DNA of 64,000 nt from a virus: the IMG/VR virus record IMGVR_UViG_3300011921_000005, positions 4,354 through 68,353 of that record, one strand, 5' to 3'. Each line of letters opens with the position of its first letter. Positions within the stretch are counted from its first letter, which is position 1. Positions 16,305 to 63,413 of this stretch are shown one piece after another. The position numbers and the translations under genes were made by a program. The notes beneath the pieces were generated by a model, which was not told the origin of the DNA, did no database searches, and was given only the letters and a program-made list of their open reading frames with translations.

Positions 16305-16357
16305 CTCTCATGGCTTAAGTCATCGGGGCTTAAGACTCAAGAACAGGAGAACAAGAA

Positions 16358-16993: not shown

Positions 16994-17002
16994 GACAGAA
17001 AA

Positions 17003-17077
17003 GCCCCCCGCCCGATAAGTCGGCGCAGGCTCGCGACCTACGGGGGGCACGACATAGGGAGAAAGTCTCCTTATGAC
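17003..17077 (+). ncRNA. tRNA-like mini-element plus 3' hairpin (copy 1)
   Basis: GCCCCCC/GGGGGGC stem, CCGA-TAAG-TCGG arm, AGG-CTCGCGA-CCT arm, then ACGA; followed by CATAGGGAGA-AAG-TCTCCTTATG. Confidence 0.55.
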
Positions 17078-17099
17078 TTAAGACAGGAGAAAGGGGCTA

Positions 17100-17300
17100 G
17101 TGATGACAATCACAGCAACTAACTACAAGGGGCGCGTTTGGACATGCGACCACCACAACGCCAAGATTGAGGCGATGATTAACGAGGGAAAGACAGCCGA
17201 GGCGATGGCTCTCGTTAATGTCTTAAGCCCCAAGAAATCGCGGGGAATCTGCGCCGAGTGTCGGCGCTTATGGCAAGAGACACCGCCAATGAATCGGTGA
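17100..17300 (+). CDS. Small early protein with possible Zn ligands
   Basis: 66 aa, CDHH and CAEC; SD GACAGGAGA. Confidence 0.65.
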   Translation: MMTITATNYKGRVWTCDHHNAKIEAMINEGKTAEAMALVNVLSPKKSRGICAECRRLWQETPPMNR

Positions 17301-17311
17301 CTTAAGACACA

Positions 17312-17379
17312 GCCCCCGCCGATAGGGTACGGATTCACAATCCAACGGGGGCACGAACTCTCAACCTAAAGTTGAGGGT
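17312..17379 (+). ncRNA. tRNA-like mini-element plus 3' hairpin (copy 2)
   Basis: GCCCCCG/CGGGGGC, CC-GATA-GG, GGA-TTCACAA-TCC, then ACGA; followed by CTCTCAAC-CTAAA-GTTGAGGG. Confidence 0.55.
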
Positions 17380-17383
17380 TAGG

Positions 17384-17415
17384 TGTGACCAACATCACAC
17401 GCAAAATGATTGACA
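17384..17415 (+). promoter_or_regulatory. CRP/GlxR-type box plus TTGACA
   Basis: TGTGA-CCAACA-TCACA (17384-17399), 10 nt, TTGACA (17410-17415). Confidence 0.7.
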
Positions 17416-17499
17416 CGCTCAATCACCGCGTGAGAAGGTTACACCAAGCAAGAACACGACAGGCAGAGCGCAGGTTGTGTATTAAGACAGGAGATAAAA

Positions 17500-17820
17500 A
17501 TGTCAGAAGAAGTAAAGACAGCAAGCCAGCAATTCGCAGATGACTATCTGCTAGTGGTTGAAAATGACCGCGAAGGATGGGATGAGATTACTCAAGAAGC
17601 CCGCCGAGTTAAGTACAACATGCCAGAACTCAGCGACTCAATCCGCGAACAGTTCGAGACTCTTGCCTCTCAGGTTATAGAAAACTCAGAAGAAGAAATC
17701 ACAGAGTTTGGCGCTAATGTCTTAAGACAGGTACTCATCGGCATGGGTTCATCAACTTTCGACATCATCGCTCGCGAAGTAATCGCCCGCGATAAAGAGA
17801 CACTAGGAATTGAGGCTTAA
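17500..17820 (+). CDS. Hypothetical early protein
   Basis: 106 aa acidic ORF; SD GACAGGAGA. Confidence 0.7.
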   Translation: MSEEVKTASQQFADDYLLVVENDREGWDEITQEARRVKYNMPELSDSIREQFETLASQVIENSEEEITEFGANVLRQVLIGMGSSTFDIIAREVIARDKETLGIEA

Positions 17821-17823
17821 GAC

Positions 17824-17967
17824 ATGAAAATCACATACGAAATTTATTCAAAAGTCGGCAACTTCGCAGGCTCCAACACAACGGACAGCCTGGCAAAGAT
17901 GGCAGAGATTCGCCACTTACTGGAGAGTAATAACCAAGCCTGCACAATCACAAAGATTGAGGAGTAA
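17824..17967 (+). CDS. Small early protein (47 aa)
   Basis: Hand-translated MKITYEIYSKVGNFAGSNTT...; starts in the TAA-GAC-ATG junction. Confidence 0.55.
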   Translation: MKITYEIYSKVGNFAGSNTTDSLAKMAEIRHLLESNNQACTITKIEE

Positions 17968-17984
17968 TCGGTATTAAGACACAA

Positions 17985-18000
17985 TGTGACTAATATCACA
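17985..18000. promoter_or_regulatory. CRP/GlxR-type box
   Basis: TGTGA-CTAATA-TCACA, perfect consensus. Confidence 0.7.
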
Positions 18001-18079
18001 GCCCCAAATGTTGAAGAAACCGCGGTCATCATGCGACCATTGGGGCACAAGATAAAGCAGGGAAAGTCCCCGCATTATC
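18001..18079 (+). ncRNA. tRNA-like mini-element plus 3' hairpin (copy 3)
   Basis: GCCCCAA/TTGGGGC, GGTC-ATCATGC-GACC, then ACAA; followed by GATAA..GGG-AAAGT-CCC..TTATC. Confidence 0.5.
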
Positions 18080-18107
18080 GGCACGACATCACGACAGGAG
18101 AAAGCAA

Positions 18108-18662
18108 GTGAAGAAAGCAGAACTCAAGGCAGGTGTTGCTTACTATGCAACATCTCAGAACAACGGCATGCAGACTTACAGCACTTCATTGTTTAAGACA
18201 CATAGCCAACACAGTCGCAATCGTTTCTATGTAATCTTTAATGCAGACGGACAGCCAGCCACAGGATACCGAAGCGCAAGCGTAATCTATATGACCAACT
18301 GCAAGACATACGGATTCGACTGCCCAAAACATGGCAAAGACGGCAGACTAAATTGCTATCGCACAGACTTCCGACTCATGGACATCCGCGATGAATACTG
18401 GGCGGTAATCAAGCGCATGCACGAGGCACGCAAGGCACAGCCAACCAAGGACATTAGAGCCGAGCGCCTACGCCGTATCGCCAAGCGCAATCAGGAAAAG
18501 CAGGAAGCACCAATCAAGGAAGAATTCTATCGTGTCTTAAGTCAGATTACAAATAGTTACTGCCACTCTTATGACCGCCTTGGTGGATTCACACCCGCCC
18601 AAATGCAGAAGATTACCGAAGCACTCAAGGCAAGCATGCCATCAGTCCAGGCGGTGGCGTAA
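18108..18662 (+). CDS. Hypothetical early protein
   Basis: 184 aa, GTG start with SD GACAGGAGA. Confidence 0.7.
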   Translation: MKKAELKAGVAYYATSQNNGMQTYSTSLFKTHSQHSRNRFYVIFNADGQPATGYRSASVIYMTNCKTYGFDCPKHGKDGRLNCYRTDFRLMDIRDEYWAVIKRMHEARKAQPTKDIRAERLRRIAKRNQEKQEAPIKEEFYRVLSQITNSYCHSYDRLGGFTPAQMQKITEALKASMPSVQAVA

Positions 18663-18838
18663 TGAGCGACCAGCAATTCAACCTCACTTTCGTAGCCGAC
18701 CACTTCACCCTACACACGACCATCAACGCCGAGACAGAGGAGCAGGCAGAGGCTAACGCCATTGCCAATCTGCAAGACTTCTACGGCATAGACCTTAATG
18801 CAATCAAGTGTTCATTGACCGAGATTGTAGGTGCATAG
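18662..18838 (+). CDS. Small early protein (58 aa)
   Basis: MSDQQFNLTFVADHFTLHTTI resembles MTNYDVLFMHNHFVLVTTV of 57932..58174. Confidence 0.65.
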   Translation: MSDQQFNLTFVADHFTLHTTINAETEEQAEANAIANLQDFYGIDLNAIKCSLTEIVGA

Positions 18839-18913
18839 TATGTCTTACGACACAATCTGCGGTGACTGCCTTATCCCACTATCACAATGCCAACATGCGA
18901 AGGAGTACAAGCG

Positions 18914-19066
18914 ATGAAACTTAATAGACGAGGCAAAAAAGTTAGAGCGATTCTAATTTATGTCTTAATACTTATTGCAATCTATTCAGTATCGGTTGCG
19001 ATGGGCGTGTGGGAGATACCCGAATCATGCCTAGTTGATGGAGTCGGATGCCCAGATGGGTATTAA
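18914..19066 (+). CDS. Small membrane protein (50 aa)
   Basis: MKLNRRGKKVRA followed by a hydrophobic helix ILIYVLILIAIYSVSVAMGVW. Confidence 0.6.
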   Translation: MKLNRRGKKVRAILIYVLILIAIYSVSVAMGVWEIPESCLVDGVGCPDGY

Positions 19067-19073
19067 GACAGAG

Positions 19074-19105
19074 TGTGACCAACAACACATGACAAATGCT
19101 TGACA
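19074..19105 (+). promoter_or_regulatory. CRP/GlxR-type box plus TTGACA
   Basis: TGTGA-CCAACA-ACACA (one mismatch), 10 nt, TTGACA (19100-19105); same spacing as 17384. Confidence 0.65.
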
Positions 19106-19157
19106 CCTACAACCAAATAGATTTAACTACAACTACCAACTAGACAGGAGAAAGAAC

Positions 19158-19301
19158 ATGACAAGACAAACAAGCAAGACAGCAAAGATGACAGTAAGTA
19201 TTAAGACAGAACAAGGTATCGAGTCTTACTTCTTCTATGACATGGAGCAGTACGGCGCAATCCTCAAGGCGATAGACCAAGCACAGATGGGGGGCAACTA
19301 A
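19158..19301 (+). CDS. Small early protein (47 aa)
   Basis: SD GACAGGAGA; stop overlaps the next ATG. Confidence 0.55.
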   Translation: MTRQTSKTAKMTVSIKTEQGIESYFFYDMEQYGAILKAIDQAQMGGN

Positions 19302-19669
19302 TGAGCAACACAACAGGGCATGTAAATGCCAACGGAGAAGGAACAATCATTGTGCCCGTTGAACTAGACCGCAAGGAATTATGGTCAGCGGTTATGGGGT
19401 CAGCATGGGAAACTTTCGGCGACCATTGGCAGGAGTACGAGTACATTAGCGGTGATTGGGATGACCCAACTAGCAAGGTGCGCCTCGTATGCCATAACGA
19501 TAAGTACGAAAATGTTGAGAAGGTAATCACCATTGACGACATTGCCTTGGCGCTACCTATTGCAAACAAGAAAGTTTATATGGACTTATTTGACTTTGAC
19601 CAATACGATGCTATTTGCGGTGATGCAGTCTTACAGGTTGCAGTCATTGGCGATGTGGTATTTGGTTAG
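19301..19669 (+). CDS. Hypothetical early protein
   Basis: 122 aa acidic ORF, translationally coupled. Confidence 0.7.
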   Translation: MSNTTGHVNANGEGTIIVPVELDRKELWSAVMGSAWETFGDHWQEYEYISGDWDDPTSKVRLVCHNDKYENVEKVITIDDIALALPIANKKVYMDLFDFDQYDAICGDAVLQVAVIGDVVFG

Positions 19670-19825
19670 GACTTAAGACATGAACGACACCGAACGCAAG
19701 CAGATACAGCGCCTTGCAAGGCGAGCGCGTGAGCAACGCAACGCCACGACAGACAACGAATCGTTTGACTATTGGCAAGGCGTTATGGAAAACTTACTCA
19801 ACCAACTAAAGACAGGAGATAACAA

Positions 19826-19939
19826 ATGAGCGAACCACAATGGCTGCAAGGTGACGACATAGCCCTTGGTAAAGACGAAGAAGATACCGAACCCAACCCA
19901 CAGTACGACACACTTGAGGAGATGTACGGAGATGACTAA
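19826..19939 (+). CDS. Small acidic early peptide (37 aa)
   Basis: MSEPQWLQGDDIAL...MYGDD matches MSEPQWLEGDDYAL...MYGDEE in 58174..58368. Confidence 0.65.
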   Translation: MSEPQWLQGDDIALGKDEEDTEPNPQYDTLEEMYGDD

Positions 19940-20195
19940 GGAATTAGAAGTTGGTGCATTACTTAAGACAGAAACAGCCTATGACAAGGACATGAACATC
20001 ACCTTTGATGGGCAAGAGATACGAGTTATCCTGCATTGGGATGACCATGATGGCTTTGATATTCAATGGCTTGACCTGGAAGGGCGCTGGATTCAGGCAC
20101 CTGCATGGGCAGATAAGATTGAGGAAGATGGGCAGATGAGCATTGGCTACTTCCTTGATTCACTTGAAGCACACACCAAGAAGGAGACACCATGA
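19932..20195 (+). CDS. Hypothetical early protein
   Basis: Start moved to ATG 19932 (MTKELEVG); acidic, Trp-rich. Confidence 0.65.
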   Translation: MTKELEVGALLKTETAYDKDMNITFDGQEIRVILHWDDHDGFDIQWLDLEGRWIQAPAWADKIEEDGQMSIGYFLDSLEAHTKKETP

Positions 20196-20368
20196 CAGTC
20201 TTGATGGAGTGCCTTGGTTGTGGCACGACAGTAACCAACCCAAGAATAATGAACTACATGTACGAGAAGTGTAACCCTTGCACCGAAAAGCAGAAGGACA
20301 TGGAAGAGAAAGCAATAGATACTTTCTTGCATGCCGAAGCCGAGAGAAAGTTGGACAGTAATGTTTGA
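20192..20368 (+). CDS. Small zinc-finger-like protein (58 aa)
   Basis: CLGC...CNPC; SD AAGGAG. Confidence 0.55.
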   Translation: MTVLMECLGCGTTVTNPRIMNYMYEKCNPCTEKQKDMEEKAIDTFLHAEAERKLDSNV

Positions 20369-20804
20369 TAACTTAAGACAGATTCATCCGCACGCCCGAC
20401 TGTGGATTGTATCCGCCATCGTACTTGCCTTGGTACTTATGCTCAAAGAACCAGCCACCTTCATTGTGAAGCCACCACATGGCAAGGTAATTGCTTACTA
20501 TCAGAACGATTACCAACGCTATGCAATAGACAGACTAACCGAGATGGACATGCTTGAGCAGTATCCATGTCTCTATGAACTATGGATGCGCGAGTCTAAC
20601 TGGCGACCAGAAGCAAAGAACAAGCAGTCTAGTGCAACGGGGATACCTCAGTTGCTTAGTAGTACATGGAAGAATATCAAGGTGAAGCCCACGCGTGATG
20701 GCATGAAGCAGGTTGATGCGGGCTTGCGCTACATCAAACACAGATATGGAAGCAAAGGTGTGTGCCGAGCATACGCCCACCACTTAGCGAAGGGTTGGTA
20801 TTAA
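20361..20804 (+). CDS. Lytic transglycosylase (SLT/lysozyme-like) with N-terminal membrane anchor
   Basis: LWMRESNW catalytic Glu motif, GIPQL, YIKHRYG, C-terminal GWY; homologue 58378..58818. Confidence 0.8.
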   Translation: MFDNLRQIHPHARLWIVSAIVLALVLMLKEPATFIVKPPHGKVIAYYQNDYQRYAIDRLTEMDMLEQYPCLYELWMRESNWRPEAKNKQSSATGIPQLLSSTWKNIKVKPTRDGMKQVDAGLRYIKHRYGSKGVCRAYAHHLAKGWY

Positions 20805-20807
20805 GAC

Positions 20808-21161
20808 ATGAGTAAGTTTCAACCAAAGCACCACCGAGTTATAGCAGTAAGAGGTAGCCTCAATAGATACGGCAAAGGGTTAGTGTCTTATGTCTTAAGA
20901 TATAACGCACGCCTCTGGGATGGGGCAACATGTCGAGGCATAGACACCGATGTCTTTTACCCAGCGCAAGAACTATTTAGTCGTGATGAAGAGCGCATGT
21001 TCAAACGCATGTGTGCCGATTGTCCAGCGATGGATGCTTGCTTGGAGTGGGGCTTAGCCCACGAAAGGTACGGCGTATGGGGTGGCACTACACCACCAAT
21101 GCGACACAAGATGAGAAAGACTTTAGGATTGGCTATCGCAGACCCACAGCACAATCCATGA
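20808..21161 (+). CDS. whiB: WhiB-family Fe-S transcription factor
   Basis: C...MCADCPAMDAC...GVWGGTT signature. Confidence 0.92.
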   Translation: MSKFQPKHHRVIAVRGSLNRYGKGLVSYVLRYNARLWDGATCRGIDTDVFYPAQELFSRDEERMFKRMCADCPAMDACLEWGLAHERYGVWGGTTPPMRHKMRKTLGLAIADPQHNP

Positions 21162-21167
21162 TACAAT
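21159..21167 (+). promoter_or_regulatory. Extended -10 promoter for the anti-RBS hairpin RNA (X)
   Basis: TG-a-TACAAT, 6 nt before the hairpin stem. Confidence 0.6.
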
Positions 21168-21173
21168 AAGGAC

Positions 21174-21215
21174 AAAGCCCGCTAGATTCTCTCCTGTCTC
21201 TGGCGGGCTTTCTTA
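21174..21215 (+). ncRNA. Hairpin with anti-RBS loop; also a likely bidirectional terminator
   Basis: 13-bp stem AAAGCCCGCTAGA/TCTGGCGGGCTTT; loop TTCTCTCCTGTC complementary to GACAGGAGA; TTTCTT tail. Confidence 0.7.
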
Positions 21216-21219
21216 TGTC

Positions 21220-21759
21220 TTAAGAATCTAAATGTAATTCCTTAGCAAGCATGAACACTTCATCACTCAAGTCATCGAGAGTTCCATCGTTATAGATAAC
21301 ATGATTAAACATGTAGTTATCCATCGCATGCTCTGATGCATGACCATTGACAGCGCTATGGTTGTGTCGGTTGATGCGCCAAAGAGAACCACCAAGTTTC
21401 TTGATTGCATCAGCCTCATTAGGAAAGCGCACATCCGAGATAACAACTTTATCTTCTGACTTAATACCTGATAGTGCTATGTCAACCCAAAAGTTTTCAC
21501 CGAACATCTTGCGACCAACCTCAGTACCTAGCACCTGCAATAGACGGCGCACCTCAGGGTCTTTTTTAGTCAAGTCCCAGCCGTAGTCCTCAACGCGATG
21601 TGCTACATGTGTGATGCTATCCAACTTAGGGTTGAGTCTAAGTAAAGCCTCACGCATAGGGTCAGCAAAAGCAATACGGCGGTATCCGTAATTAAGACAT
21701 AACAATTCTGCCGTGCTGTCCTTGCCTGATTGTGCGTATCCACTTAGTCCGATAATCAT
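21220..21759 (-). CDS. Deoxynucleoside monophosphate kinase
   Basis: IIGLSGYAQSGKDS P-loop, FADPMRE, RRLLQVLGTE, VVISDVRFPNEA, HASE. Confidence 0.9.
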   Translation of the reverse strand: MIIGLSGYAQSGKDSTAELLCLNYGYRRIAFADPMREALLRLNPKLDSITHVAHRVEDYGWDLTKKDPEVRRLLQVLGTEVGRKMFGENFWVDIALSGIKSEDKVVISDVRFPNEADAIKKLGGSLWRINRHNHSAVNGHASEHAMDNYMFNHVIYNDGTLDDLSDEVFMLAKELHLDS

Positions 21760-23799: not shown

Positions 23800-24148
23800 T
23801 GCTGAGCCTTTGAACAACATAAGCATCACCTATTCCCTTATTACTAGCCTTAATAATCACCAATGGTGATGGTGCCAGCAGTAATCTCTTTGCCAATCGG
23901 TAGTTCTCTGCCTCAACATCTGCCTCACGCAACCAACCTGATAGGTCAATGCGACCATCACGCCGTGGTGCCTTGGCTTCAATCACATACGAATCGTTTA
24001 CTGTCTTAAGAAAGACATCACCAATGTCGTTACGCCCTGCCCGAGGCAGGCGCTGTGCTTCGTAATCTAACTCAACAAACCAATCTGCTAAGTCAATCTC
24101 CCACGCTGCACCTCTACGCTTGTTCGCTGTCTGCGGACTGTTGCTCAC
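23780..24148 (-). CDS. Holliday-junction resolvase (Hjc-like PD-(D/E)XK)
   Basis: KRRGAAWE...DIGD...VIEAK; homologue 63066..63413. Confidence 0.75.
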   Translation of the reverse strand: MSNSPQTANKRRGAAWEIDLADWFVELDYEAQRLPRAGRNDIGDVFLKTVNDSYVIEAKAPRRDGRIDLSGWLREADVEAENYRLAKRLLLAPSPLVIIKASNKGIGDAYVVQRLSNVLPKL

Positions 24149-24851
24149 GCTCTCTCCTCTCGGCTATCTCTACTGATGCCCAGTACAGGTTGTAGTAACC
24201 ATCATCCAGGGCAAAGCGCTTCATGTGCTTTACCAATGCTGATGTATTTGCATAGACTTGTATGCCTGCTGCTTTAACCTTGCGGAAGAAGGCAATGTCC
24301 TCACCAATAAACTGCTCACCGCTTTCATTGTTCTCAGCAAACACAAAGTCTGTCTCACCAAACTTGTCATGCAATGCCTTGATAACAGACTTATGCATTA
24401 AGACCAAACCTAAACCAGCGCTGTCAACCTTAATAACTTGATTGCGTGGCAATGGATGGTGATGTTTAATCTGATACTCATGTTCACCCTCATCAAAGAT
24501 AGCGGGCATAGGTTGCATGAGTGTGTTCTCCATCTGCTTAGAGATAAAGTACACACCACTTACAACTGGGCGAGCAATCTTGTCGGCGGTATCCCATAGT
24601 GTCTTGACAACTTCCTTTGTAAGTACGATGTCAGAGTCAACCCATAACGCCCAGTCAGTACCAACCTTGTTCCACATCTCAAAGGCAGCCTGTCGTTGGC
24701 GTGCAATCTGATTACCCTGCACACGAATAGCGTTGTGAAACGGAACCTCACCAGTGATGATGCTGTACACCAAGCCTTCTGTAAACTTGCCATCTGTGTT
24801 CCCATTGTCACACCAGATAACGGATAGTGTTTCCTTATTGCTGTGTGCCAT
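24114..24851 (-). CDS. GT-A (family 2-like) glycosyltransferase
   Basis: IARQR, WALWVDSDIV (DxD), AGLGLVLMH, GEDIAFF, ANTS...H.K motifs. Confidence 0.8.
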   Translation of the reverse strand: MAHSNKETLSVIWCDNGNTDGKFTEGLVYSIITGEVPFHNAIRVQGNQIARQRQAAFEMWNKVGTDWALWVDSDIVLTKEVVKTLWDTADKIARPVVSGVYFISKQMENTLMQPMPAIFDEGEHEYQIKHHHPLPRNQVIKVDSAGLGLVLMHKSVIKALHDKFGETDFVFAENNESGEQFIGEDIAFFRKVKAAGIQVYANTSALVKHMKRFALDDGYYNLYWASVEIAERREREQQSADSEQA

Positions 24852-32925: not shown

Positions 32926-32954
32926 GTGAGCAGTTTAAACCCATGCTCAGGGAT
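32926..32954 (-). ncRNA. Candidate small H-type pseudoknot (copy 2)
   Basis: Minus strand ATCC-CTGAGCA-T-GGGT-TTAAAC-TGCTCAC. Confidence 0.45.
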
Positions 32955-32960
32955 AATCAT

Positions 32961-33335
32961 TTATTCAGATAAAGGTATTGAAACCCATTCTTGATTTAAT
33001 TCAAACCATCTCCATGTATAACCCTCAATATCATTTGGCTTAGGTATAGGTGGTTCCCATTGAAATGTAGTATAATTTAATTTCCAAGTAGGAAATTGTT
33101 TAGGTGCAATAAATGCATCAAAATCAGCATTATAGAAAAACCCAACTCCAGCATAATTTTTTCTAAAGTTTCTATTATATGAAGTTTGCTTCCATAAGTT
33201 ATGCCCATACAATTCAGTTAAAAAATCAATACCTGCTTGTTCAGATTCTGCACCGTCAATTATAAGTACATCATTAGATACAGCAAGTACATCAATTACA
33301 TTATTGTTTTCATCTAATTTAGCAAAGTGTGCCAT
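32961..33335 (-). CDS. Tail-fibre-associated hypothetical protein
   Basis: MAHFAKLDENN...WKQTSYN...RKNYAG...WEPP; AT-rich; follows the Gly-rich fibre gene. Confidence 0.55.
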   Translation of the reverse strand: MAHFAKLDENNNVIDVLAVSNDVLIIDGAESEQAGIDFLTELYGHNLWKQTSYNRNFRKNYAGVGFFYNADFDAFIAPKQFPTWKLNYTTFQWEPPIPKPNDIEGYTWRWFELNQEWVSIPLSE

Positions 33336-36935: not shown

Positions 36936-37832
36936 CTATCTACCGTAGTGGACGCGGGTTGGGTACTGAAGTTTCTGCTTAAGCGATTCGTCTTCAAGAC
37001 GCTGTAAGTAGAGAGTTTGCAATTGACGAGTTACGTTTGCACCTGTTCCATACGGACGCTTGCTGTCAATTTCATCTGATTGTGGAGAAGTAATAGAATT
37101 ACGGGCTGGGTCAAAGAAAGAAGCAAGTCGCCAAGAAGCGCCGTAAATAACTACGTCTCTCATACTGGTTGGCAAACCAGATACACTTTCAAAATTGTCC
37201 GTAGGGTTTTGTAACTCTACTGGCATGTGTGAATAAATAATATTAATAGTACGACCTGGAAGAACGTTGTCGTAAATAGATACGGTCTTACCAGTTGGAA
37301 ATGATGGAGCATAAGCAATTGGGTCCCAACGCCATTGGCGGATAGGCAGCCATTCAAGTGTTGGTCCAACTGATTGCCATGCCATTGAAAGAATCTGAAT
37401 GGCTTCTGACGGTACAGGATAAGTTGTACGGCTAGCCAAGAAAGATACTGGAGTAGAACCTACTGCATACACCTTTGGGTACACAGAATTAATTGTGTCG
37501 TTAATTGCACGCTTAACAGCCTGACGTGGGTATGTAGGTGCAATTGTAATCTTAGAGTTTACGCTATGTGCTGCTGCTGTTGTGCCATTATAACCGCGAC
37601 CATAAGGAGCAATGCTTACTGTGTTTGATTGACGGTCATATGAATCTACCCACATCATTTCGTCATCAATTTCAATAATGCCTTTACCAATGTTTTCAGT
37701 AGATGCAACTTTAATGCTAAGGTCACTGCTAGACATTTCAGTAGTAAGATAAGTAGCGCGGTCTTGACGGTAGGTAAAACCTGCAAGGTTTAGTTGCGTG
37801 TCATTAATAAGGTCAGTTAACGTAGTTGCCAT
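36936..37832 (-). CDS. Putative head-tail adaptor/tail tubular protein
   Basis: 298 aa; RGYNGTTAAAH, AINDTIN; functional call from position. Confidence 0.5.
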   Translation of the reverse strand: MATTLTDLINDTQLNLAGFTYRQDRATYLTTEMSSSDLSIKVASTENIGKGIIEIDDEMMWVDSYDRQSNTVSIAPYGRGYNGTTAAAHSVNSKITIAPTYPRQAVKRAINDTINSVYPKVYAVGSTPVSFLASRTTYPVPSEAIQILSMAWQSVGPTLEWLPIRQWRWDPIAYAPSFPTGKTVSIYDNVLPGRTINIIYSHMPVELQNPTDNFESVSGLPTSMRDVVIYGASWRLASFFDPARNSITSPQSDEIDSKRPYGTGANVTRQLQTLYLQRLEDESLKQKLQYPTRVHYGR

Positions 37833-54960: not shown

Positions 54961-55033
54961 TGGCGCCCCAGGAGGAATTGAACCCCTACCTCAGGGTACG
55001 TAACCCTGCGTTCTCTCCGTTAAACTATGAGGC
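54961..55033 (-). tRNA. tRNA-Arg(ACG), atypical
   Basis: D arm GTTT/GAAC with G18G19A20; anticodon arm CAGGG-TTACGTA-CCCTG; T loop TTCAATT; encoded CCA; 6-bp acceptor stem. Confidence 0.8.
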
Positions 55034-55961
55034 TATGTTGGATAGTTACTTCAATACGTTGGTCTCGTCAGACCAGTCGGGATACGAACCCTGTCCGCCC
55101 ACTACTCTTGATTTCGTGGGTATGCAAGCCTACACCTTTAACGTACCTTTTTACCACCAAGCAGATATTCCACTTTCTGCGAGAGGTGTGAGCCTCTGCT
55201 TGATGTCCAACAATTCTAAAATGGCAGACTATACCCGCCGTATAGAAGTATATCTGTACAACAGTATGTCACAGTATGAGGAAGGCTCTAAAAAGACTTC
55301 CGAATATAATTTACTGTACATATATACTTAATCCGTTCAAACTAACAAAACGAACTATTTAGCCATAACTATTTATAAAACAGCAGGTCAGATACTATAC
55401 TGGGGTCACTATATACAGAAATATTTATAGTCAGAGTTACCTACATATACAGGCGAACAGATTAAAACAGTAGGGGTCAAGACCCTACATGTTCTAATCT
55501 GAACAGACTGTCACTACTAGGCGTAGTCTGCGTAGAGATACTGTCTGTCGGGCTGTCGCCCCCTAAATAGATTTGTACTGACAGCCGTGCTGTATGTATA
55601 TATCTATTCAGGTTAAAGATTAAAAGACTAACTGCCTTGTCAGTGAGTCACGCATGCTGGCTGTGATACAGCGTGTCTAAAGCCACGCTCGGTATCTGCC
55701 AACCAGATGCGTTTATGTTTTAATCTATCAGTCGCCTGCATGGTAGCCCATGTGTCAAATCGGTCTATGTCTTTCCTATTCGGAAAGCCAATACTATCCC
55801 GATTGCTCTGCCCGCGGGGTGCAAGCACCCACGCGTGCTCGGCTGTCTAAAGCCATCCGCGCCCCCAGCCCAAGCATGGGCTGTGGTATGACATTCATAG
55901 GCTATCCAATTGGCGAACCGATAGATTGTCGGTGGAACTAACAAACTAAGGAGAGCACCAA

Positions 55962-56363
55962 ATGAACGAAGTAACATACACACAGGAAGACTCACTCACC
56001 ATCAGCAACGTCTGTCCTGAATGTATCGCGCAGGAGCAACTCTGTATTGACTGCGTGGAACTAGCAGACGCACGCCTCACAGACCGTGTATATGAGGCGG
56101 CGTCAGAAGGCAACCTTATGTACAAGTCCCAGTGGCTTGTGGAATCACAACCCAGCGGACATGACTGGACTGACCGAGAAGGGGAGTACAAGTTGCCTAT
56201 CGTCCAACTACAGGACGGAGGCGAACTTGACAACATCTGGTCACTTGATGACTACACACAGTCCCTACGTGAGGTAATATGCCACGCGTGTAACCTAGCC
56301 ACACCCAAGCAGTTCAACGACTGCCAGTGCTGCGACACACCATTGGAGGTGAATGTAAGATGA
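55962..56363 (+). CDS. Cys-rich early protein
   Basis: CPEC..C..C and CHAC..CQCC; SD AAGGAGAG. Confidence 0.65.
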   Translation: MNEVTYTQEDSLTISNVCPECIAQEQLCIDCVELADARLTDRVYEAASEGNLMYKSQWLVESQPSGHDWTDREGEYKLPIVQLQDGGELDNIWSLDDYTQSLREVICHACNLATPKQFNDCQCCDTPLEVNVR

Positions 56364-56526
56364 CTAACCCAGCAGACCTCGTACCAGAGGAAGAGTGTCC
56401 GTGCTTCTATGGTGGTTCCTGTCCAACAGACGGGGAACATCAGTAAGCACGTTACAGGTAGCCCTGTTGCCTACGGCAGGGCTACCTTCCACCATATATC
56501 AATCAACGAAACAAGGAGAGAAACAA

Positions 56527-56877
56527 ATGCAAAACGAAGTAACTATCACAGGTACAATCAAGAATGTCCGTCAGTTCACAGGTTCAAAGGGAACACTCGT
56601 AACTGGTTGGCTTAATCAGCGTGACTTCAGCCGTCTATCAGATGGTACAGCAGACCGCGCAGTGTACGTAACAGGCATCAATATCGTAGCGTTAGATGAC
56701 TCTACAGTTGGTGACTTGCTAGAACTAGATAAGATGCGTGCAGGTAACGAAGAGACCCAGACAGTGACGCTTAAGGGTCGTCTTATCACACGCTTTGACC
56801 GCCGACCAGACGTGGCAGAGGCAGCACGCCGAGCACCACAGTTGCAGTTGGAAGTCTTTGAGGTAAGCGTTAACTAA
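56527..56877 (+). CDS. Single-stranded DNA-binding-like OB-fold protein
   Basis: MQNEVTITGTIKN...VTLKGRL.T...QLEVFEV; start moved to ATG 56527 (SD CAAGGAGAG). Confidence 0.65.
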   Translation: MQNEVTITGTIKNVRQFTGSKGTLVTGWLNQRDFSRLSDGTADRAVYVTGINIVALDDSTVGDLLELDKMRAGNEETQTVTLKGRLITRFDRRPDVAEAARRAPQLQLEVFEVSVN

Positions 56878-56884
56878 CCGTTCA

Positions 56885-56933
56885 AGCAGGGAGGTGGGTG
56901 GCTCACGTAGTCACTCATCTCTCTGCTTTTTTT
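56885..56933 (+). terminator. Intrinsic terminator
   Basis: 19-bp stem AGCAGGGAGGTGGGTGGCT/AGTCACTCATCTCTCTGCT followed by a T-run. Confidence 0.9.
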
Positions 56934-57008
56934 ATTGTTCGGGGGCTTAAGGTAATCAAAAGCAACGGACAAGTCATCCATATCTATCATACCTAGCAAG
57001 GAGAGACC

Positions 57009-57188
57009 ATGTATTTTTCAGTACTAGATATAGCAGCAGTTATGATTGCGCTTACAGTATCAATCACATTGATACTGCTGACAGCACGGGCTAACCGTGA
57101 CCTGCTCAGACAAAACAGAAATCTGCGGGCGCAGAACAAGCGCCAGTCAGAACAATGCCGTAACTACCATAGCCCACGTCCGTTCTAA
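57009..57188 (+). CDS. Small membrane protein (59 aa)
   Basis: MYFSVLDIAAVMIALTVSITLILLTARANR...; SD CAAGGAGAG. Confidence 0.65.
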   Translation: MYFSVLDIAAVMIALTVSITLILLTARANRDLLRQNRNLRAQNKRQSEQCRNYHSPRPF

Positions 57189-57439
57189 TGAGCAATTGGA
57201 GAATGGATGATATGCGTGTAGGTTTAACTATTGTAGGTGAATACACAGTATCAACAGTTAAACTACGAAACAACCACGGTTGGGATACCATGCCATTATG
57301 GTATGAAACAATGATATTCCCAAAAGAAAGTATGTCAGAAGTATATATGGAGCGATATGCAACTGAAGAAGAAGCAGTAAAAGGACATGTGTATGCAATA
57401 GGGCATGCAACATCATTACAAAAAGGAGAGAACAAGTGA
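57188..57439 (+). CDS. Hypothetical early protein
   Basis: 83 aa; VSTV...WYETMIFP...ERY.TEEEA..GH. Confidence 0.65.
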   Translation: MSNWRMDDMRVGLTIVGEYTVSTVKLRNNHGWDTMPLWYETMIFPKESMSEVYMERYATEEEAVKGHVYAIGHATSLQKGENK

Positions 57440-57939
57440 CACTAACAATGACAATCAAAGAACACCTAGAAGAACTAGGTACACTAGTAGACAATCAAGA
57501 GCAGTCTGTCCAACGTGTAGGCGCACGCTTAGTTGAGCAGTACTTTGCATCATCAAGCACAGAACAAAATGCCGAAGTTGTAGTCAATGTCCTGTACTAT
57601 CTAACAGATATACAGGTACGTGACTACGCACTAGGCTTGATGAATAAGGACAAGGCAGATACACTTATACCTGCGCTTGCAAACTTAATTGAACATGCAC
57701 CAACAGATACGACATACATCAACGCACCAGCGGCTATACTTGCAGGGTTATACTACGAAGTAGGTAACACAGCAGATGCATTCCTTACCCTAAGTAATGC
57801 ACAACATAACTACTCGCTAGCAATCCTGTTGAACCGTGTGTTCAAGTCAGGTTGGGAGCCAGCATCATTCGCAGCAATGCGACAGGAACTACACCCTAAG
57901 GTAGTAGCGGGTATCTTTGGAGAGGAAACCAATGACTAA
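57436..57939 (+). CDS. DUF4192-like protein
   Basis: LTDIQVRDYALG...APAAILAGLYYEVGN...YSLA.LL; recognised from memory of the family, not searched. Confidence 0.6.
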   Translation: MTLTMTIKEHLEELGTLVDNQEQSVQRVGARLVEQYFASSSTEQNAEVVVNVLYYLTDIQVRDYALGLMNKDKADTLIPALANLIEHAPTDTTYINAPAAILAGLYYEVGNTADAFLTLSNAQHNYSLAILLNRVFKSGWEPASFAAMRQELHPKVVAGIFGEETND

Positions 57940-58174
57940 CTATGACGTACTATTTATGCACAACCATTTTGTACTGGTGACTACAGTTATGATGGAAGAA
58001 ACAGACGATAAAGAACTAATTGAATTGATTGCACTCAAGCGCTTGGCGGATGAGTACGGTGATGAGTTCTCTGAAATTGTCAAGTCATCCAAGCAAGTAA
58101 CTATTGAGTCAGTGCCAGGTACTAGTGTGCCTGAGCCAGGCGACCCAGAAGATGCAGGTATTGAACGTGACTAA
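57932..58174 (+). CDS. Hypothetical early protein
   Basis: Homologue of 18662..18838. Confidence 0.65.
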   Translation: MTNYDVLFMHNHFVLVTTVMMEETDDKELIELIALKRLADEYGDEFSEIVKSSKQVTIESVPGTSVPEPGDPEDAGIERD

Positions 58175-58368
58175 TGATGACGCCCGCTGTAGCCAATGCG
58201 GTACAGCGTGCGAGATATGCAACATGGAGGAAGATGATGAGTGAACCACAGTGGTTAGAAGGTGACGATTATGCACTGAAGGATGAGTGTGATGTATGCG
58301 GTAACTTTATACACTCATGTGAATGTGATAGTGGAGAACCTGACCGTATGTATGGAGACGAAGAGTAA
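58174..58368 (+). CDS. Small acidic early protein with Cys motif
   Basis: Shares MSEPQWL.GDD.AL with 19826..19939; adds CDVC...C.C. Confidence 0.6.
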   Translation: MMTPAVANAVQRARYATWRKMMSEPQWLEGDDYALKDECDVCGNFIHSCECDSGEPDRMYGDEE

Positions 58369-58377
58369 AGGACAAGT

Positions 58378-58818
58378 ATGCGACAGCAACTAGCACGGTA
58401 TATATCTATAGGCACTAGCCTTATGTTATCATTTGCTTCTTTAATTGGGATACCTGTTAAGGCTATTGCATTAAGCAATCAGCCACCGTTAGAACCAAAG
58501 AAAGAAGTTAAGTTAGTAGTACATGTGTGGAACAAGTTCACACTCAAGGCATATGCCAAAGCATATATAAAAGAAACTTATCCTAAGTGGGGACGCAATG
58601 AATGGTCAGCACTAAACAAGTTATGGGGTAAAGAATCTGCGTGGGACCACACGGCAGACAATCCACATTCATCAGCGTTTGGTGTAGCACAAGTACTTAA
58701 GACAGACCCTGAGACCCCAGCCCCCCTGCAAATTGCGAAGGGGCTGGAGTATATCGTTCACCGATACGACCTGCCATCAGTAGCATGGGCGCATTGGCGA
58801 AAGAACGGGTGGTACTAA
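58378..58818 (+). CDS. Lytic transglycosylase (SLT-like) with N-terminal anchor
   Basis: LWGKESAW, AFGVAQ, YIVHRY, GWY. Confidence 0.8.
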   Translation: MRQQLARYISIGTSLMLSFASLIGIPVKAIALSNQPPLEPKKEVKLVVHVWNKFTLKAYAKAYIKETYPKWGRNEWSALNKLWGKESAWDHTADNPHSSAFGVAQVLKTDPETPAPLQIAKGLEYIVHRYDLPSVAWAHWRKNGWY

Positions 58819-58979
58819 TGAACTACATAGTACAAGTAGAAGTATCAGTTGAAGCAGACAATGATGATGCTGCTTTATTCTGGGTACAAGATGCCGTACG
58901 AATGTACGGTGCAACAATGTCTATCCATAGGTGGATAGATACAAGGCTAGAAAGGGAGAGCAATGCTACAAATCAGTGA
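58818..58979 (+). CDS. Small hypothetical protein
   Basis: MNYIVQVEVSVEADNDDAA...; coupled. Confidence 0.55.
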   Translation: MNYIVQVEVSVEADNDDAALFWVQDAVRMYGATMSIHRWIDTRLERESNATNQ

Positions 58980-59988
58980 AGCATATCAAAGCAAATCAGT
59001 AGAAAAACTAAACAAACAAGCATGGGTACAGGCAGGCACTGCGGTTAACGCAGGGTCTGCATCAGAAGCAGCACGACAGGCTGGACTAGACTGGAACGTA
59101 ATGCTTGCAGATATGGAAGCAATTGTTTCCAATAAAGTTAATGAGTACGAGACATTGACTGACCATTATCCTGTACCTAAACGACAGGCTGTTATTAAAC
59201 TTGGCAAAGATAACAACAATGAAGTCATTGGTGTAGTCGGTGACAAGTACAAAATTGTACAAAACATGGAAGTATTTAGTGCGCTAGATACACTAGTTGA
59301 CTCAGGTGATGCACGCTATACGGCAGCAGGTGAGTACAACAACGGTGCTAACATCTGGATGGTAATGGAATTACCTATCGGAGTACAGGTAGCCAACGAC
59401 CCACACGCTGCATTCTTATTGGTGCAGTCATCACATGATGGTTCATGTGCAGTACGTATTCGCCCTATCATTGAGCGTTTATTCTGTGCTAATCAAATCA
59501 ACCGCATCATCAAGGGTAAACATAAGAATGATTACACCTATGTTATGAAGCACACTACTAACTCTGAGTTGTCGGTCAATGACATCCGCAACATCACGCA
59601 GTTAACTTATGATTCTATCCAGCAGTATGAAACAATTGCTGGCACATTACTAGAGCGCAAGGTAGATGACCAACAGGTACAGAATATTTTTAAGCGTGTA
59701 TGGGCATTGCCATCAGAGATTGAAGATGCACCAGAGCATCTACTATCACAAGGACAGCGCCGTCAACGTACCATTGCGCTTAATGGACGTGACTCTGCAT
59801 GGAATATCTACAGCCAGTCACATACACAAGAAAACATCAGAGGTACAGCCTTTGGTGTATGGCAAGCAGTGGTAGAACATGCAGACCACTATGCTTCTGG
59901 TGGCTCTGACCGCCGTGCAATCGCCACCATCAGCGGACGCAATGACCGTATCAAAGACAAAGCACTAGACCTAGTGCTTGCTAACTAA
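58963..59988 (+). CDS. DUF932-family (phage/plasmid-like) protein
   Basis: AGLDWNV, VGDKYKIVQN, SSHDGS, RLFCANQ, H.T, T.FG.WQAV.E.ADH. Confidence 0.85.
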   Translation: MLQISEAYQSKSVEKLNKQAWVQAGTAVNAGSASEAARQAGLDWNVMLADMEAIVSNKVNEYETLTDHYPVPKRQAVIKLGKDNNNEVIGVVGDKYKIVQNMEVFSALDTLVDSGDARYTAAGEYNNGANIWMVMELPIGVQVANDPHAAFLLVQSSHDGSCAVRIRPIIERLFCANQINRIIKGKHKNDYTYVMKHTTNSELSVNDIRNITQLTYDSIQQYETIAGTLLERKVDDQQVQNIFKRVWALPSEIEDAPEHLLSQGQRRQRTIALNGRDSAWNIYSQSHTQENIRGTAFGVWQAVVEHADHYASGGSDRRAIATISGRNDRIKDKALDLVLAN

Positions 59989-59996
59989 GGAGAGAC

Positions 59997-60431
59997 ATGT
60001 TCAATACAATCACAATCAATTCAGAAGTAGATGGTCAAGTAAACACAGTTACATATACTGAGACAGAAGTCTTGCACTTCAAGAAGAGAGCACAGGATAT
60101 AGATGCTATCGAACAAGCCAATGAAAACCAACGCAAACAACTCCGTGATTTACGTCATGAAGTCCGTGACTTTTTCAGTGAAGGTGAATGGTCAGACGGT
60201 GAGACAACATGCAACAAGAGTGACGTCAATGCATTACTCGAACGCATTGGTGCAGCCAAACTTACTACCAAGTACAACGGAACCTTTACAATCACAGGTT
60301 CATTTAGTATTGAAGTAGAAGATGAAGATGAGATTGAAGATATTATTACAGATAATACTGAAATCTCTAACTGGTCAGCCGACATGGATGTAGACCAGAT
60401 TGAAGTACATGATGTAGAAGAGGACAACTAA
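59997..60431 (+). CDS. Acidic hypothetical protein
   Basis: 144 aa; SD AAGGAGAG. Confidence 0.65.
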   Translation: MFNTITINSEVDGQVNTVTYTETEVLHFKKRAQDIDAIEQANENQRKQLRDLRHEVRDFFSEGEWSDGETTCNKSDVNALLERIGAAKLTTKYNGTFTITGSFSIEVEDEDEIEDIITDNTEISNWSADMDVDQIEVHDVEEDN

Positions 60432-60805
60432 TGTCCTCAGCCTACGTACCATACAACGGTACTGCTGGCTGGTCAGGTACGGATACATCTCAGCAGAGAG
60501 CGCTAGATAATATCCACTCTGGTCGGGAAGAAAACAACCAGCAAAAAGCGTTACACCTGTTAAAACATATGGGTAAACTAGGGCTAACTTGGAAAGAGTT
60601 AGCAACAGAAACAGGTTGGCATCACGGCACAGCAAGTGGCGTGTTGTCAGTACTGCACATGTCTGGTGCTATAGTACGTACATATACAACACGTAACAGA
60701 TGTAAAGTGTATGTGCACCAGAACTTTAAAGATGACGTTAAAGTAGAACCATATAAGAAACGAGAAAAACTTTGTCCGCATTGCGGGCATGACGTCAATG
60801 CATAG
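60431..60805 (+). CDS. Winged-HTH-like DNA-binding protein with C-terminal CxxC
   Basis: GLTWKELATETGWHHGTASGVLSVLH, CPHCG. Confidence 0.65.
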   Translation: MSSAYVPYNGTAGWSGTDTSQQRALDNIHSGREENNQQKALHLLKHMGKLGLTWKELATETGWHHGTASGVLSVLHMSGAIVRTYTTRNRCKVYVHQNFKDDVKVEPYKKREKLCPHCGHDVNA

Positions 60806-60815
60806 CCGTCACCTA

Positions 60816-60824
60816 TGCTATGAT
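60816..60824 (+). promoter_or_regulatory. Extended -10 promoter for the anti-RBS hairpin RNA (Y)
   Basis: TG-c-TATGAT, 6 nt before the hairpin stem. Confidence 0.6.
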
Positions 60825-60830
60825 GGGGAC

Positions 60831-60881
60831 AACCAGTGAGCGGTAGGTTTTGGCTCTCTCCTTGTCCTACCCTCACTGGTT
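60831..60881 (+). ncRNA. Hairpin with anti-RBS loop (Y)
   Basis: AACCAGTGAG/CTCACTGGTT plus GGTAGG/CCTACC; loop contains CTCTCTCCTTG, complementary to CAAGGAGAGA. Confidence 0.7.
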
Positions 60882-60900
60882 ACTTAATCTAAGGAGAAGC

Positions 60901-61671
60901 ATGGCAGAAGTAGAAATACCTAGAGATAGATACGGACGACCAATGGTTGTGCCACCTAAGGGTGGCAAGCCAGTACCGTATACACGTACCACTACAGTTG
61001 CAGGTTCGCTAGATGATGGCACTGCATTAGTAGCATGGAAGTTACGTATGGCAGCAGCAGGATTAACACTGCGACCTGACCTGTTGTTAGCAGCCAGTGC
61101 TGTAAGAGACAACAAGTTAGAGATGGACAAGTTAGTTGAAGATGCAATGGAAGCAGCAGGTGCAACCAAGCAAGCAACTATAGGTACAGCCATACATACA
61201 CTGACCGAGAAGCATGACAGAGGTATAGACTTAGGTGTAATCCCTGAAGATTATGTCGCTGACATACAAGCATATGACGCAGCAACTAAAGATTTTGAGA
61301 ATGTATTCATTGAACAGTTCTGTGTATTAGATAAGTTTAAAATAGCAGGCACGCCTGACCGTATCGTTAGATACAAAGGCGAGTTGTTTATTTCTGACCT
61401 CAAGACTGGTAGTATTTCCTACCCAAACAAGATTGCTATGCAGTTAGCAGTGTATGCAAACGGCTTGCCGTATGACCCTGCTACCGCAAGCCGTTCGTCT
61501 TGGGGAGATGTCAATACAGAAAAGGGAATTATTGTGCACTTGCCAGCAGGCAGTGGTGAATGTACCCTGCACTTTGTTGACATCAAAGAAGGATGGAAGG
61601 GTATCCAGTTAGCAATGAAGGTACGTGCTTTCAGAGATACCAAAAAGAAATTGGTAGAGAAACTTACGTGA
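60901..61671 (+). CDS. PD-(D/E)XK exonuclease
   Basis: IPRDRYGRP, AGTPDRI, SDLKTG, MQLAVYA. Confidence 0.8.
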   Translation: MAEVEIPRDRYGRPMVVPPKGGKPVPYTRTTTVAGSLDDGTALVAWKLRMAAAGLTLRPDLLLAASAVRDNKLEMDKLVEDAMEAAGATKQATIGTAIHTLTEKHDRGIDLGVIPEDYVADIQAYDAATKDFENVFIEQFCVLDKFKIAGTPDRIVRYKGELFISDLKTGSISYPNKIAMQLAVYANGLPYDPATASRSSWGDVNTEKGIIVHLPAGSGECTLHFVDIKEGWKGIQLAMKVRAFRDTKKKLVEKLT

Positions 61672-62253: not shown

Positions 62254-63069
62254 ATGAAAACACTACGCCGTAGTATTGGCAAGCCAGAGGTGGGGGGAGA
62301 ACCATTACCCCCACCTTTTCAGGCTTTCCAGCGTGAAGGAATCATTCTGCGTAGAGCAGAAGTCACCGTCATAGCGGGTACTCCAGGCGCAGGTAAGTCA
62401 TCTATTGCATTACATATCGCAGCAAGACTTAAACAACCGACACTATACTTCTCTGCTGATACTAATGCACATACTATGGCAATGCGTTTGCTTGCTATGA
62501 AAGCCAAGATAACTCAGCAAGATGCTGAGTACATGATTAAGACTAAGCCAGAAACAGCGGAGCATTATCTTCGTGAGTTCTCTGGTATGTACTGGTCATT
62601 TGAACCTAGCCCTACACTAAAAGATTTAGACGAAGAAGTATCTGCGTTTGAAACTATGTGGGGCAGAAGCCCTACACTTATAGTTGTAGATAACCTTATG
62701 GACATAGCCATTGATGGACATGAGGAGTTTGCTGGTATGCGTGCAGTTATGAAAGAGTTAAAGTATCTAGCACGTGATACTAACGCAGCAGTATTAGTCT
62801 TGCACCATACACAAGAAGGTGCGCAAGGTTATCCTTGTCAGCCACGTTCAGCATTACAGGGTAAGGTTGCACAGATTCCAGCAATGGTATTAACAGTAGG
62901 TCAAATGACACATGGAGTAGACTCTTACTTGTGTGTAGCCCCAGTTAAGAATCGTTATGGTAAGGCTGACCCAACAGGAGCAACTTACCTTACGTTATCG
63001 TTTGACCCAGCAAAGATGCATCTTGAAGATGTAATCAGAGACAGTACACAGATGGAGATGACAGTGTGA
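62254..63069 (+). CDS. DnaB-like/RecA-fold helicase
   Basis: GTPGAGKS, LIVVDN, VLHHT, KNRYG. Confidence 0.88.
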   Translation: MKTLRRSIGKPEVGGEPLPPPFQAFQREGIILRRAEVTVIAGTPGAGKSSIALHIAARLKQPTLYFSADTNAHTMAMRLLAMKAKITQQDAEYMIKTKPETAEHYLREFSGMYWSFEPSPTLKDLDEEVSAFETMWGRSPTLIVVDNLMDIAIDGHEEFAGMRAVMKELKYLARDTNAAVLVLHHTQEGAQGYPCQPRSALQGKVAQIPAMVLTVGQMTHGVDSYLCVAPVKNRYGKADPTGATYLTLSFDPAKMHLEDVIRDSTQMEMTV

Positions 63070-63413
63070 GTAGCGCAGCCAAAGCCAAAGGTTCGGGAGC
63101 CGAACGTGATGTAGTTAAGTATCTTAAACAATGGTTCCCTTATGTTGATAGGCGTTTGGCTGGTGCTACGCTAGACAAAGGTGACATATCAGGTATACCT
63201 GGAGTCACAATTGAAATTAAAAACCACGCGACAATGAAGTTGTCGGAGTGGACAGAAGAATTGTTAACCGAGATGGCTAACGATAAAGCATGGACAGGTG
63301 TGGTGTGGCACAAGCGCAAGGGTAGGGGAAGTCCTGGCGATTGGTACTGCACCATGCCTGCACATGTATGGGTAGACTTACTAAGGAGAGCACTTGGAGA
63401 AGCCAAGCATTGA
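63066..63413 (+). CDS. Holliday-junction resolvase (Hjc-like)
   Basis: KAKGSGAERDV...DKGDI...IEIKN. Confidence 0.75.
   Translation: MSSAAKAKGSGAERDVVKYLKQWFPYVDRRLAGATLDKGDISGIPGVTIEIKNHATMKLSEWTEELLTEMANDKAWTGVVWHKRKGRGSPGDWYCTMPAHVWVDLLRRALGEAKH

Follow-up and report, generated by a model that had tools for sequence, protein, structure and literature searches.

A conserved promoter-hairpin element between the early and replication genes of an uncultured actinobacterial phage: a candidate antisense RNA directed at early ribosome-binding sites

We describe a structured element in the genome of an uncultured freshwater actinobacterial phage (phage Y) in which an extended -10 promoter-like box is followed by a stable, GC-rich stem-loop with a 16-bp stem (60831-60881), and the loop is complementary to a motif found at the ribosome-binding sites (RBSs) of early genes. 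The element lies between the early genes and the genes for an exonuclease, a helicase and a primase and, therefore, exactly at the boundary of the early and replication blocks. We consider it almost certain that this is a functional, conserved structured RNA element. With regard to what it does, we favor the possibility, to which we assign a probability of about 0.5 on the strength of the sequence comparisons presented below, that the hairpin acts as an antisense RNA, in Y as the 5' leader of the replication operon, that would mask the tagged RBSs of the early genes.

Results

Source and gene layout

The DNA analysed here, referred to as the window, is a 64-kb stretch comprising bases 4354-68353 of a 76.6-kb IMG/VR entry. 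Comparison of the record with itself revealed two collinear, diverged phage genomes of ~38-39 kb each in a head-to-tail join; X occupies the window up to ~35,000 and Y the rest of the window from there. X and the end of Y share a stretch of 108 nt at 99% identity (record positions 37282-37389 and 76515-76622; the former is window 32929-33036 and the latter lies past the window end), and outside this stretch the two genomes are only 65-75% identical. The 108-nt stretch is probably the overlap through which both phages were joined during assembly. When the early regions of X and Y were compared by megablast with 50,697 GenBank phages, no match was obtained.

The structural genes of Y are encoded on the minus strand and extend up to 54941. 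Some 900 nt without a convincing gene (55035-55960) separate the tRNA-Arg gene from the first early gene and are probably the early promoter and regulatory region of Y. The early block consists of small plus-strand genes (55962-60805), including those for DUF4192, transglycosylase and DUF932 proteins. It is not one simple transcript, since a canonical intrinsic terminator with a 20-bp stem and a T-run is located inside it (56884-56938), after the gene for a 116-aa protein. The element had been predicted to mark the end of the early block, and it does sit between the gene for a 124-aa early protein and the exonuclease gene (Table 1).

Table 1. Features of the element, its candidate targets and its surroundings (window coordinates; energies are those of predicted duplexes)
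Feature	Position	Strand	Remarks
X counterpart of the element	21159-21215	+	TGaTACAAT, 13-bp terminator hairpin, loop TTCTCTCCTGTC, U-tail
tRNA-Arg gene of Y	54962-55034		
Target RBS AAGGAGAG	55948-55955	+	ATG 55962, 133 aa; -17.5 kcal/mol with loop, -8.2 kcal/mol with 16S tail
Target RBS CAAGGAGAGA	56512-56521	+	ATG 56527, 116 aa; -20.4 kcal/mol with loop
Target RBS CAAGGAGAGA	56997-57006	+	ATG 57009, 59-aa membrane peptide; -19.7 kcal/mol with loop
Target RBS AAGGAGAGA	57423-57431	+	GTG 57436, DUF4192, 167 aa; -15.0 kcal/mol
Weaker candidate target GAAAGGGAGAGC	58950-58961	+	ATG 58963, DUF932, 341 aa; -16.9 kcal/mol
Target RBS AAGGAGAGA	59987-59995	+	ATG 59997, 144 aa; -15.1 kcal/mol
Last Y early gene, 124 aa	60431-60805	+	Weak winged-helix and zinc-ribbon matches
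Extended -10 promoter-like box TGcTATGAT	60816-60824	+	Read from the letters; putative promoter
Spacer GGGGAC, 6 nt	60825-60830	+	
Hairpin 5' arm AACCAGTGAG-(C)-GGTAGG	60831-60847	+	10 bp, bulged C at 60841, 6 bp
Loop TTTTGGCTCTCTCCTTGT, 18 nt	60848-60865	+	Core CTCTCTCCTTG at 60854-60864 complements the early RBS motif
Hairpin 3' arm CCTACC-CTCACTGGTT	60866-60881	+	No U-tract behind
SD AAGGAGA (60891-60897) and ATG (60901) of the exonuclease gene	60891-60903	+	Possible cis target
Cas4-type PD-(D/E)XK exonuclease gene, first of the replication block	60901-61671	+	phrog_466, 1.4e-63
DnaB-like helicase and primase genes of the replication block	62254-63069 (helicase); from 63394 (primase)		phrog_243, 8e-73, given for the block
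Sixth AAGGAGAG	63383-63390	+	Before TTG 63394, primase zinc-finger ORF; outside the early block

The hairpin is conserved as a plus-strand RNA

RNAfold predicts the hairpin in Y (105 nt, -38.2 kcal/mol, z -3.2) and places GG-CC pairs inside the loop. The loop would then be partly occluded, which counts against the antisense reading. Directly 3' of the stem stands ACTTAATCT, without a U-run. The original prediction had named an extended -10 box, a 6-nt spacer, a stem and a loop with no U-run behind them, and each is located where it had been placed. The spacer was further said to end in GGAC; this is true of Y, but nnGGAC is not conserved among its relatives and we have rejected it as a defining feature.

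Relatives of Y were fetched with the upstream 124-aa protein, which gave 80 viral contigs at 68-96% identity, and with a second query that gave ~25 more; the element is present in all ~100 Y-type contigs fetched. Owing to indels, the stem went undetected when RNAalifold was applied to the raw MAFFT alignment, and this result was superseded by a covariance-model alignment of 68 distinct Y-type sequences with the structure stated. In that alignment, 94% of the cells of the stem are paired and double changes are found in 12 of the 16 pairs (162 cells), as compared with 43-57% paired when the 3' partners were slid by 1-3 columns as a control. Given that plus-strand G.U combinations greatly exceed A.C (76 versus 11), the structure under selection is that of the plus-strand RNA. 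The only blocks conserved at 90% or more in the 68 sequences are the -10 box, the loop (TTT...TCTCTCCTTGT) and the Shine-Dalgarno sequence (SD); for the loop core this level holds among Y-type relatives with the exception of one sublineage (B, see below). The -10 box is as conserved as the loop and varies among the 68 relatives solely where promoters tolerate change (TG[C/T]TA[T/A/C]GAT). We infer both promoter activity and the ends of the transcript. Public RNA runs yielded only four entries with a small share, all of them contigs of relatives at ~90% and probably DNA.

There is no U-tract in any of the ~100 Y-type loci and no convergent gene at any of them, just as had been noted for Y itself, and the element is therefore not a canonical terminator. 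We also rejected the idea that a minus-strand open reading frame or RBS lies behind the conservation of the loop, as there is no suitably spaced start codon and the G.U bias is that of the plus strand. A search of the whole window against Rfam at gathering scores returned the tRNA as the sole match and no other family, including C4 antisense RNA and 6C, and a local scan by E-value gave a single chance match (E 4.9).

The loop complements a motif at early start codons

The commonest 8-mer of the Y early block is AAGGAGAG, which occurs 7 times in the 64-kb window where 1.6 copies are expected, a count reached in none of 100 shuffles. Six of the copies precede start codons on the plus strand, five of these within the Y early block, and the single minus-strand copy in the window is the one inside the Y hairpin loop. 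The Y copies, as AAGGAGAG(A), are always 2-6 nt upstream of the start codon, and none is found at the Y structural genes. These are the five early RBSs that had been listed originally, to which the copy at 63383 is an addition, and the 10-nt matches that had been reported at 56512 and 56997 are real.

The predicted duplexes of the loop with six Y early RBSs (the five above and the weaker candidate before the DUF932 gene) range from -15 to -20.4 kcal/mol as compared with a mean of -8.5 kcal/mol for late genes, and the same six RBSs would pair with the 16S tail at only -8 to -9.5 kcal/mol. As early mRNA is purine-rich and the loop pyrimidine-rich, we chose composition-matched shuffles of the loop itself as the control. 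Against such shuffled loops, Y has 5 start-proximal matches of at least 8 nt where 0.58 are expected and 4 of at least 9 nt where 0.19 are expected (p 0.002 in both cases). In the X lineages the start-proximal matches give p values of at most 0.007 (~0.002 for X itself). The enrichment is weaker, with p 0.02-0.04, when matches are counted anywhere in the early region.

We also compared all hairpins in the window blindly with the predicted gene starts. The X hairpin ranked first and was a clear outlier, with 10 genes matched and 3 for the next best, and the Y hairpin ranked 4 of 1450 when 6-bp stems were allowed. The two hairpins that ranked between them have weak 6-bp stems and loops that are trivially, generically anti-SD-like, and one of the two is the antisense of an RBS. 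A point to be set against the antisense reading is that CUCCUU in the loop core is part of the 16S anti-SD, so that some complementarity to RBSs comes free. As a separate observation, the RBS GAGAGGAGAGAGC of an X minus-strand gene (24148-24175) has 10 nt complementary to the Y loop (-19.5 kcal/mol) and is a good match to the X loop too.

Loop and motif change together in several lineages

The covariance model built from Y finds the X element as its second-best match in the window (17 bits, E 0.14) and a box lies near the hairpin foot in most lineages, which bears out the earlier claim of an architecture common to both phages. More precisely, a TAnnnT hexamer, often TGnTAnnnT, is located 6-7 nt upstream of the first hairpin base in most lineages, whichever hairpin leads, and in some Y sublineages the distance from box to first hairpin base is 4-6 nt. 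Such spacings are what one would expect if transcription began at the base of a hairpin at the 5' end. Among relatives of X, fetched via a WhiB-like gene, the loop (A)TTCTCTCCTGTC(T) is preserved even at 52% protein identity, on no fewer than 5 different stems that include U.G pairs, and so is the U-tail. At many X-type loci the -10 box is separated from the terminator hairpin by a further 5' hairpin, which covaries, and by a conserved linker, AUAGAAAA; an RNA with two hairpins and a length of ~85 nt is predicted from this.

The loops of X and Y have TCTCTCCT(T)GTC in common, differ by one inserted T and are homologous. The extra U of the Y loop relative to X is mirrored by an extra A in the Y RBS motif. 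The two motifs are largely confined to their own lineages: GACAGGAG occurs 269 times in 64 X-type loci (266 of these start-proximal) and 6 times in 73 Y-type loci, and AAGGAGAG occurs 74 times in the 73 Y-type loci (72 start-proximal) and 5 times in X-type loci. The proteins of the tagged genes are not orthologous between lineages.

A third lineage (44% WhiB identity) has TGnTAGGCT, a 7-nt spacing and a terminator with a U-run, the 8-nt apical loop of which, UUCCAGUC, is the exact complement of GACUGGAA. In its early region GACTGGA (GACUGGA in RNA) is present 3-5 times per 6 kb where 0.35 are expected, nearly always 1-13 nt before a start codon and never on the other strand, and the p values obtained by shuffling the apical loop are 0.003-0.013. 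As this motif does not resemble an SD, anti-SD mimicry alone does not explain the pattern of loops and motifs.

The Y-type sublineages are less uniform. The loop of sublineage C contains one more U (..CCUUGUUCC), the RBSs follow the pattern AACAAGGAGA and the enrichment is marginal (p 0.004-0.34, depending on locus and match length). Sublineage B has a changed loop, UUUCUCUCUCUUUCC, that is still CU-rich, with one strong target and no enrichment; we rejected it as a clean case of covariation and it is the main internal counter-example. In all, co-change of loop and target is seen between X and Y, between sublineages A and C and in the third lineage, and is absent in sublineage B. The original proposal that loop and targets had changed in concert from X to Y stands in so far as the one-nucleotide differences mirror each other and the third lineage is matched as well, but the two loops are not unrelated sequences. 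The link between loop and early RBSs that was to be sought across homologous genomes is significant by shuffling in Y and X, with motifs specific to each lineage, is marginal in C and is missing in B.

The early regions hold other repeats as well. In X (16330-21223) and its kin TTAAGACA is dense, at 15-20 copies per 5-6 kb, and often reads TTAAGAC with an ATG immediately behind. Its place in the early region of the third lineage is taken by GTTTAAAC (21 copies, often as GTTTAAACATG). Each repeat contains a TAA stop immediately ahead of the next start, and this suggests stop-start coupling or a signal for a regulator.

A parallel in Cluster K mycobacteriophages

Cluster K mycobacteriophages carry start-associated sequences (SASs) with the consensus GGGATAGGAGCCC, in 11-19 copies that lie 3-7 nt upstream of the start codons of non-structural genes (Pope et al. 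2011, PMC3203893). The SAS consists of an SD core with an extension beyond 16S complementarity and is found in one orientation, before genes of unrelated families, with a single reverse copy in K1; its partner was suggested to be 'either RNA or protein' (PMC3203893). Its role was still called unknown in 2024-2025 (PMC11373665; PMC12699233) and no RNA partner has been proposed in the searchable literature.

We found that the transcribed (plus) strand folds into a stable hairpin of ~19 bp around the single reverse SAS of K1 phages, which makes up its 10-nt loop CCUCCUAUCC, in both Anaya (JF704106, ~59,850-59,905, between gp96 and gp97; z -4.0) and Adephagia (JF704105, ~58,660-58,715, between gp92 and gp93; z -7.9). 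The hairpin is conserved in K1, and compensatory changes in the outer stem among K1 phages are visible by eye in the alignment. The hairpin is located in the 430-nt intergenic region in which, taken as a whole, late transcription of K1 is reported to start (PMC11373665). In the alignment, Keshu and SirPhilip have no anti-SAS loop and the loops of Amgine and Ekdilam have diverged, and we therefore rejected the anti-SAS loop as a universal feature of Cluster K. K2, K3 and K6 keep their SASs without an exact anti-SAS loop, and this too counts against the antisense reading.

The SAS system and that of Y are alike in having a repeated asymmetric motif with an SD core, in one orientation, a few nt from the starts of non-structural genes that belong to different families, and a single reverse copy in a hairpin loop (in K1). 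The layout is also the same in K1 and Y, with the anti-tag hairpin at the head of the next temporal unit. On the other hand, the phages and their hosts are unrelated and the Y motif differs from the consensus GGGATAGGAGCCC, so that we regard Y as an analogue of the SAS system and not as a member of it.

Discussion

A working model

A plausible scenario is that the extended -10 promoter starts plus-strand transcription at the foot of a very stable hairpin that presents a conserved single-stranded loop, complementary to the lineage-specific RBS motif of five or six early genes. In Y the hairpin would be the 5' end of the transcript of the replication (middle) operon, and in X and the third lineage the U-tailed design would yield a free RNA of 45-90 nt. 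As this RNA accumulates, its loop may pair with the tagged early RBSs over 9-11 bp at -15 to -20 kcal/mol, which would be far stronger than the pairing of these sites with the 16S tail. Access of 30S subunits to them would thereby be blocked, such that translation of early genes drops as the next temporal class rises. A reciprocal variant, which is speculative, would have the early mRNAs and the exonuclease SD in cis compete for the loop. We infer that loop and RBSs pair in vivo and that the sign of the effect is repression.

Our reasons for favoring the antisense reading are that: (i) the single minus-strand copy of the motif is the one in the hairpin loop; (ii) loop complementarity is enriched over shuffled loops specifically near start codons; (iii) loop and motif differ between lineages by matched changes, including a lineage with a motif that is not SD-like; and (iv) K1 mycobacteriophages have an analogous arrangement.

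Alternative explanations

The loop might instead act only in cis. In this scenario the hairpin would stabilise the 5' end of the mRNA of the replication operon, and its loop would pair with the SD of the exonuclease gene ~25 nt downstream, or compete for it, in a pseudoknot-like fashion and so adjust the translation of this single gene; the matches at early RBSs would be a by-product of SDs being alike. Such an arrangement would account for the fact that at every Y-type locus the box is directly 5' of the hairpin and an SD and ATG are 3' of it, and the loop does match the downstream SD: the match spans 7 nt in Y (-13 kcal/mol), and in sublineage C, whose extra loop U has its counterpart in AACAAGG, it amounts to 7+5 nt around a single bulge. 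We nevertheless think it rather unlikely, as X and the third lineage have the same design of promoter, hairpin and loop without a downstream gene, the early RBSs pair with the loop more strongly than the cis SD does, and the cis match in sublineage B is poor. Sublineage B could more readily be accommodated if the loop of the RNA were bound by a protein, such as ribosomal protein S1 or an RNA-binding regulator of the phage, and did not pair with mRNA at all, since its loop stays CU-rich despite having lost complementarity to RBSs; the conservation of the loop likewise exceeds what pairing over 8-10 nt would need. This would not, however, predict that loop and motif differ in step by one nucleotide when X is compared with Y and A with C, and the third-lineage loop UUCCAGUC is no pyrimidine tract and yet matches the start motif of its own lineage. 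A protein site strikes us as improbable.

The motif could be a double-stranded DNA site for a phage regulator, comparable to a stoperator, with the loop merely one inverted copy. The motifs are short and lineage-specific, and they lie beside other dense repeats of the early-region DNA (TTAAGACA in X and GTTTAAAC in the third lineage), as might be expected of such sites. We consider this very improbable because all copies but one have the same orientation and are 1-13 nt before start codons, the single inverted copy is in a hairpin loop in every lineage examined, and the stem covaries with G.U pairs of the RNA type. Finally, the hairpin could be an ordinary terminator or processing signal at the end of an operon with a loop that matches by chance. 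Its position at the end of the early block would suit this, and the hairpins of X and the third lineage are textbook terminators. We give this explanation the least credence, given the absence of a U-tract at all Y-type loci and the shuffle tests, which speak against chance; nor does a terminator need a loop that is invariant across fully replaced stems.

A possible general timer

A broader version of the antisense reading, which we offer tentatively and regard as doubtful in its full extent, is that actinobacterial phages mark early or non-structural genes with a private RBS tag that is read by an anti-tag hairpin RNA, located at the head of the next temporal unit (Y and K1) or standing alone (X and the third lineage). 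This would amount to a general RNA timer and would explain the SASs of Cluster K. If true, it would add a simple RNA layer of temporal control that is predictable from sequence and recognisable in uncultured phages. The K1 parallel makes the purpose of the SASs experimentally addressable, as both Adephagia and Anaya can be grown on M. smegmatis and are open to engineering, and RNA-seq data already exist for them.

Comparison with known systems

Transcription factors and sigma factors are generally credited with temporal control in phages, together with a small number of proteins that include RegA and RegB. The latter two provide precedent in T4 for phage-coded shut-off of early mRNAs through the SD region, RegB as a nuclease and RegA as a repressor; they are proteins, whereas we propose an antisense RNA. 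As compared with an intrinsic terminator, the element is alike in being a GC-rich stem-loop at the end of an operon, but a U-run is found only in X and the third lineage, and the Y-type element has no U-run, a promoter box upstream and an invariant loop.

Masking of an RBS by the loop of an antisense hairpin is itself a known mechanism (c4, RNAIII, RsaE, 6C, icaR 3' UTR). In Gram-positive bacteria, RNAIII, RsaE/RoxS and the actinobacterial 6C RNA are small RNAs with pyrimidine-rich or C-rich loops that mask SDs, and the 3' UTR of icaR of S. aureus interacts with an SD as well; in these cases initiation is blocked when the anti-SD-like seed in a hairpin loop binds the SDs of several mRNAs or, alternatively, that of the mRNA to which it belongs. 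These are cellular regulators, whereas the seed of Y matches a private phage RBS tag and is located at a temporal-class boundary. The c4 antisense RNA of P1 and P7, reportedly described by Citron and Schuster in 1990, is said to have exposed loops that pair with RBS-covering sequences on phage mRNA, and the loops and targets of c4 from related phages are said to differ by matched changes. It reportedly controls one operon (icd-ant) in temperate-phage immunity and is excised by RNase P. In our search of the literature no paper was found that describes a private RBS tag together with a hairpin reader. The features that are new in comparison with these systems are the private RBS tag on unrelated early genes, the reader at a temporal-class boundary and the link to the SASs: c4 is limited to a single operon, whereas the tag of Y is common to several unrelated early genes.
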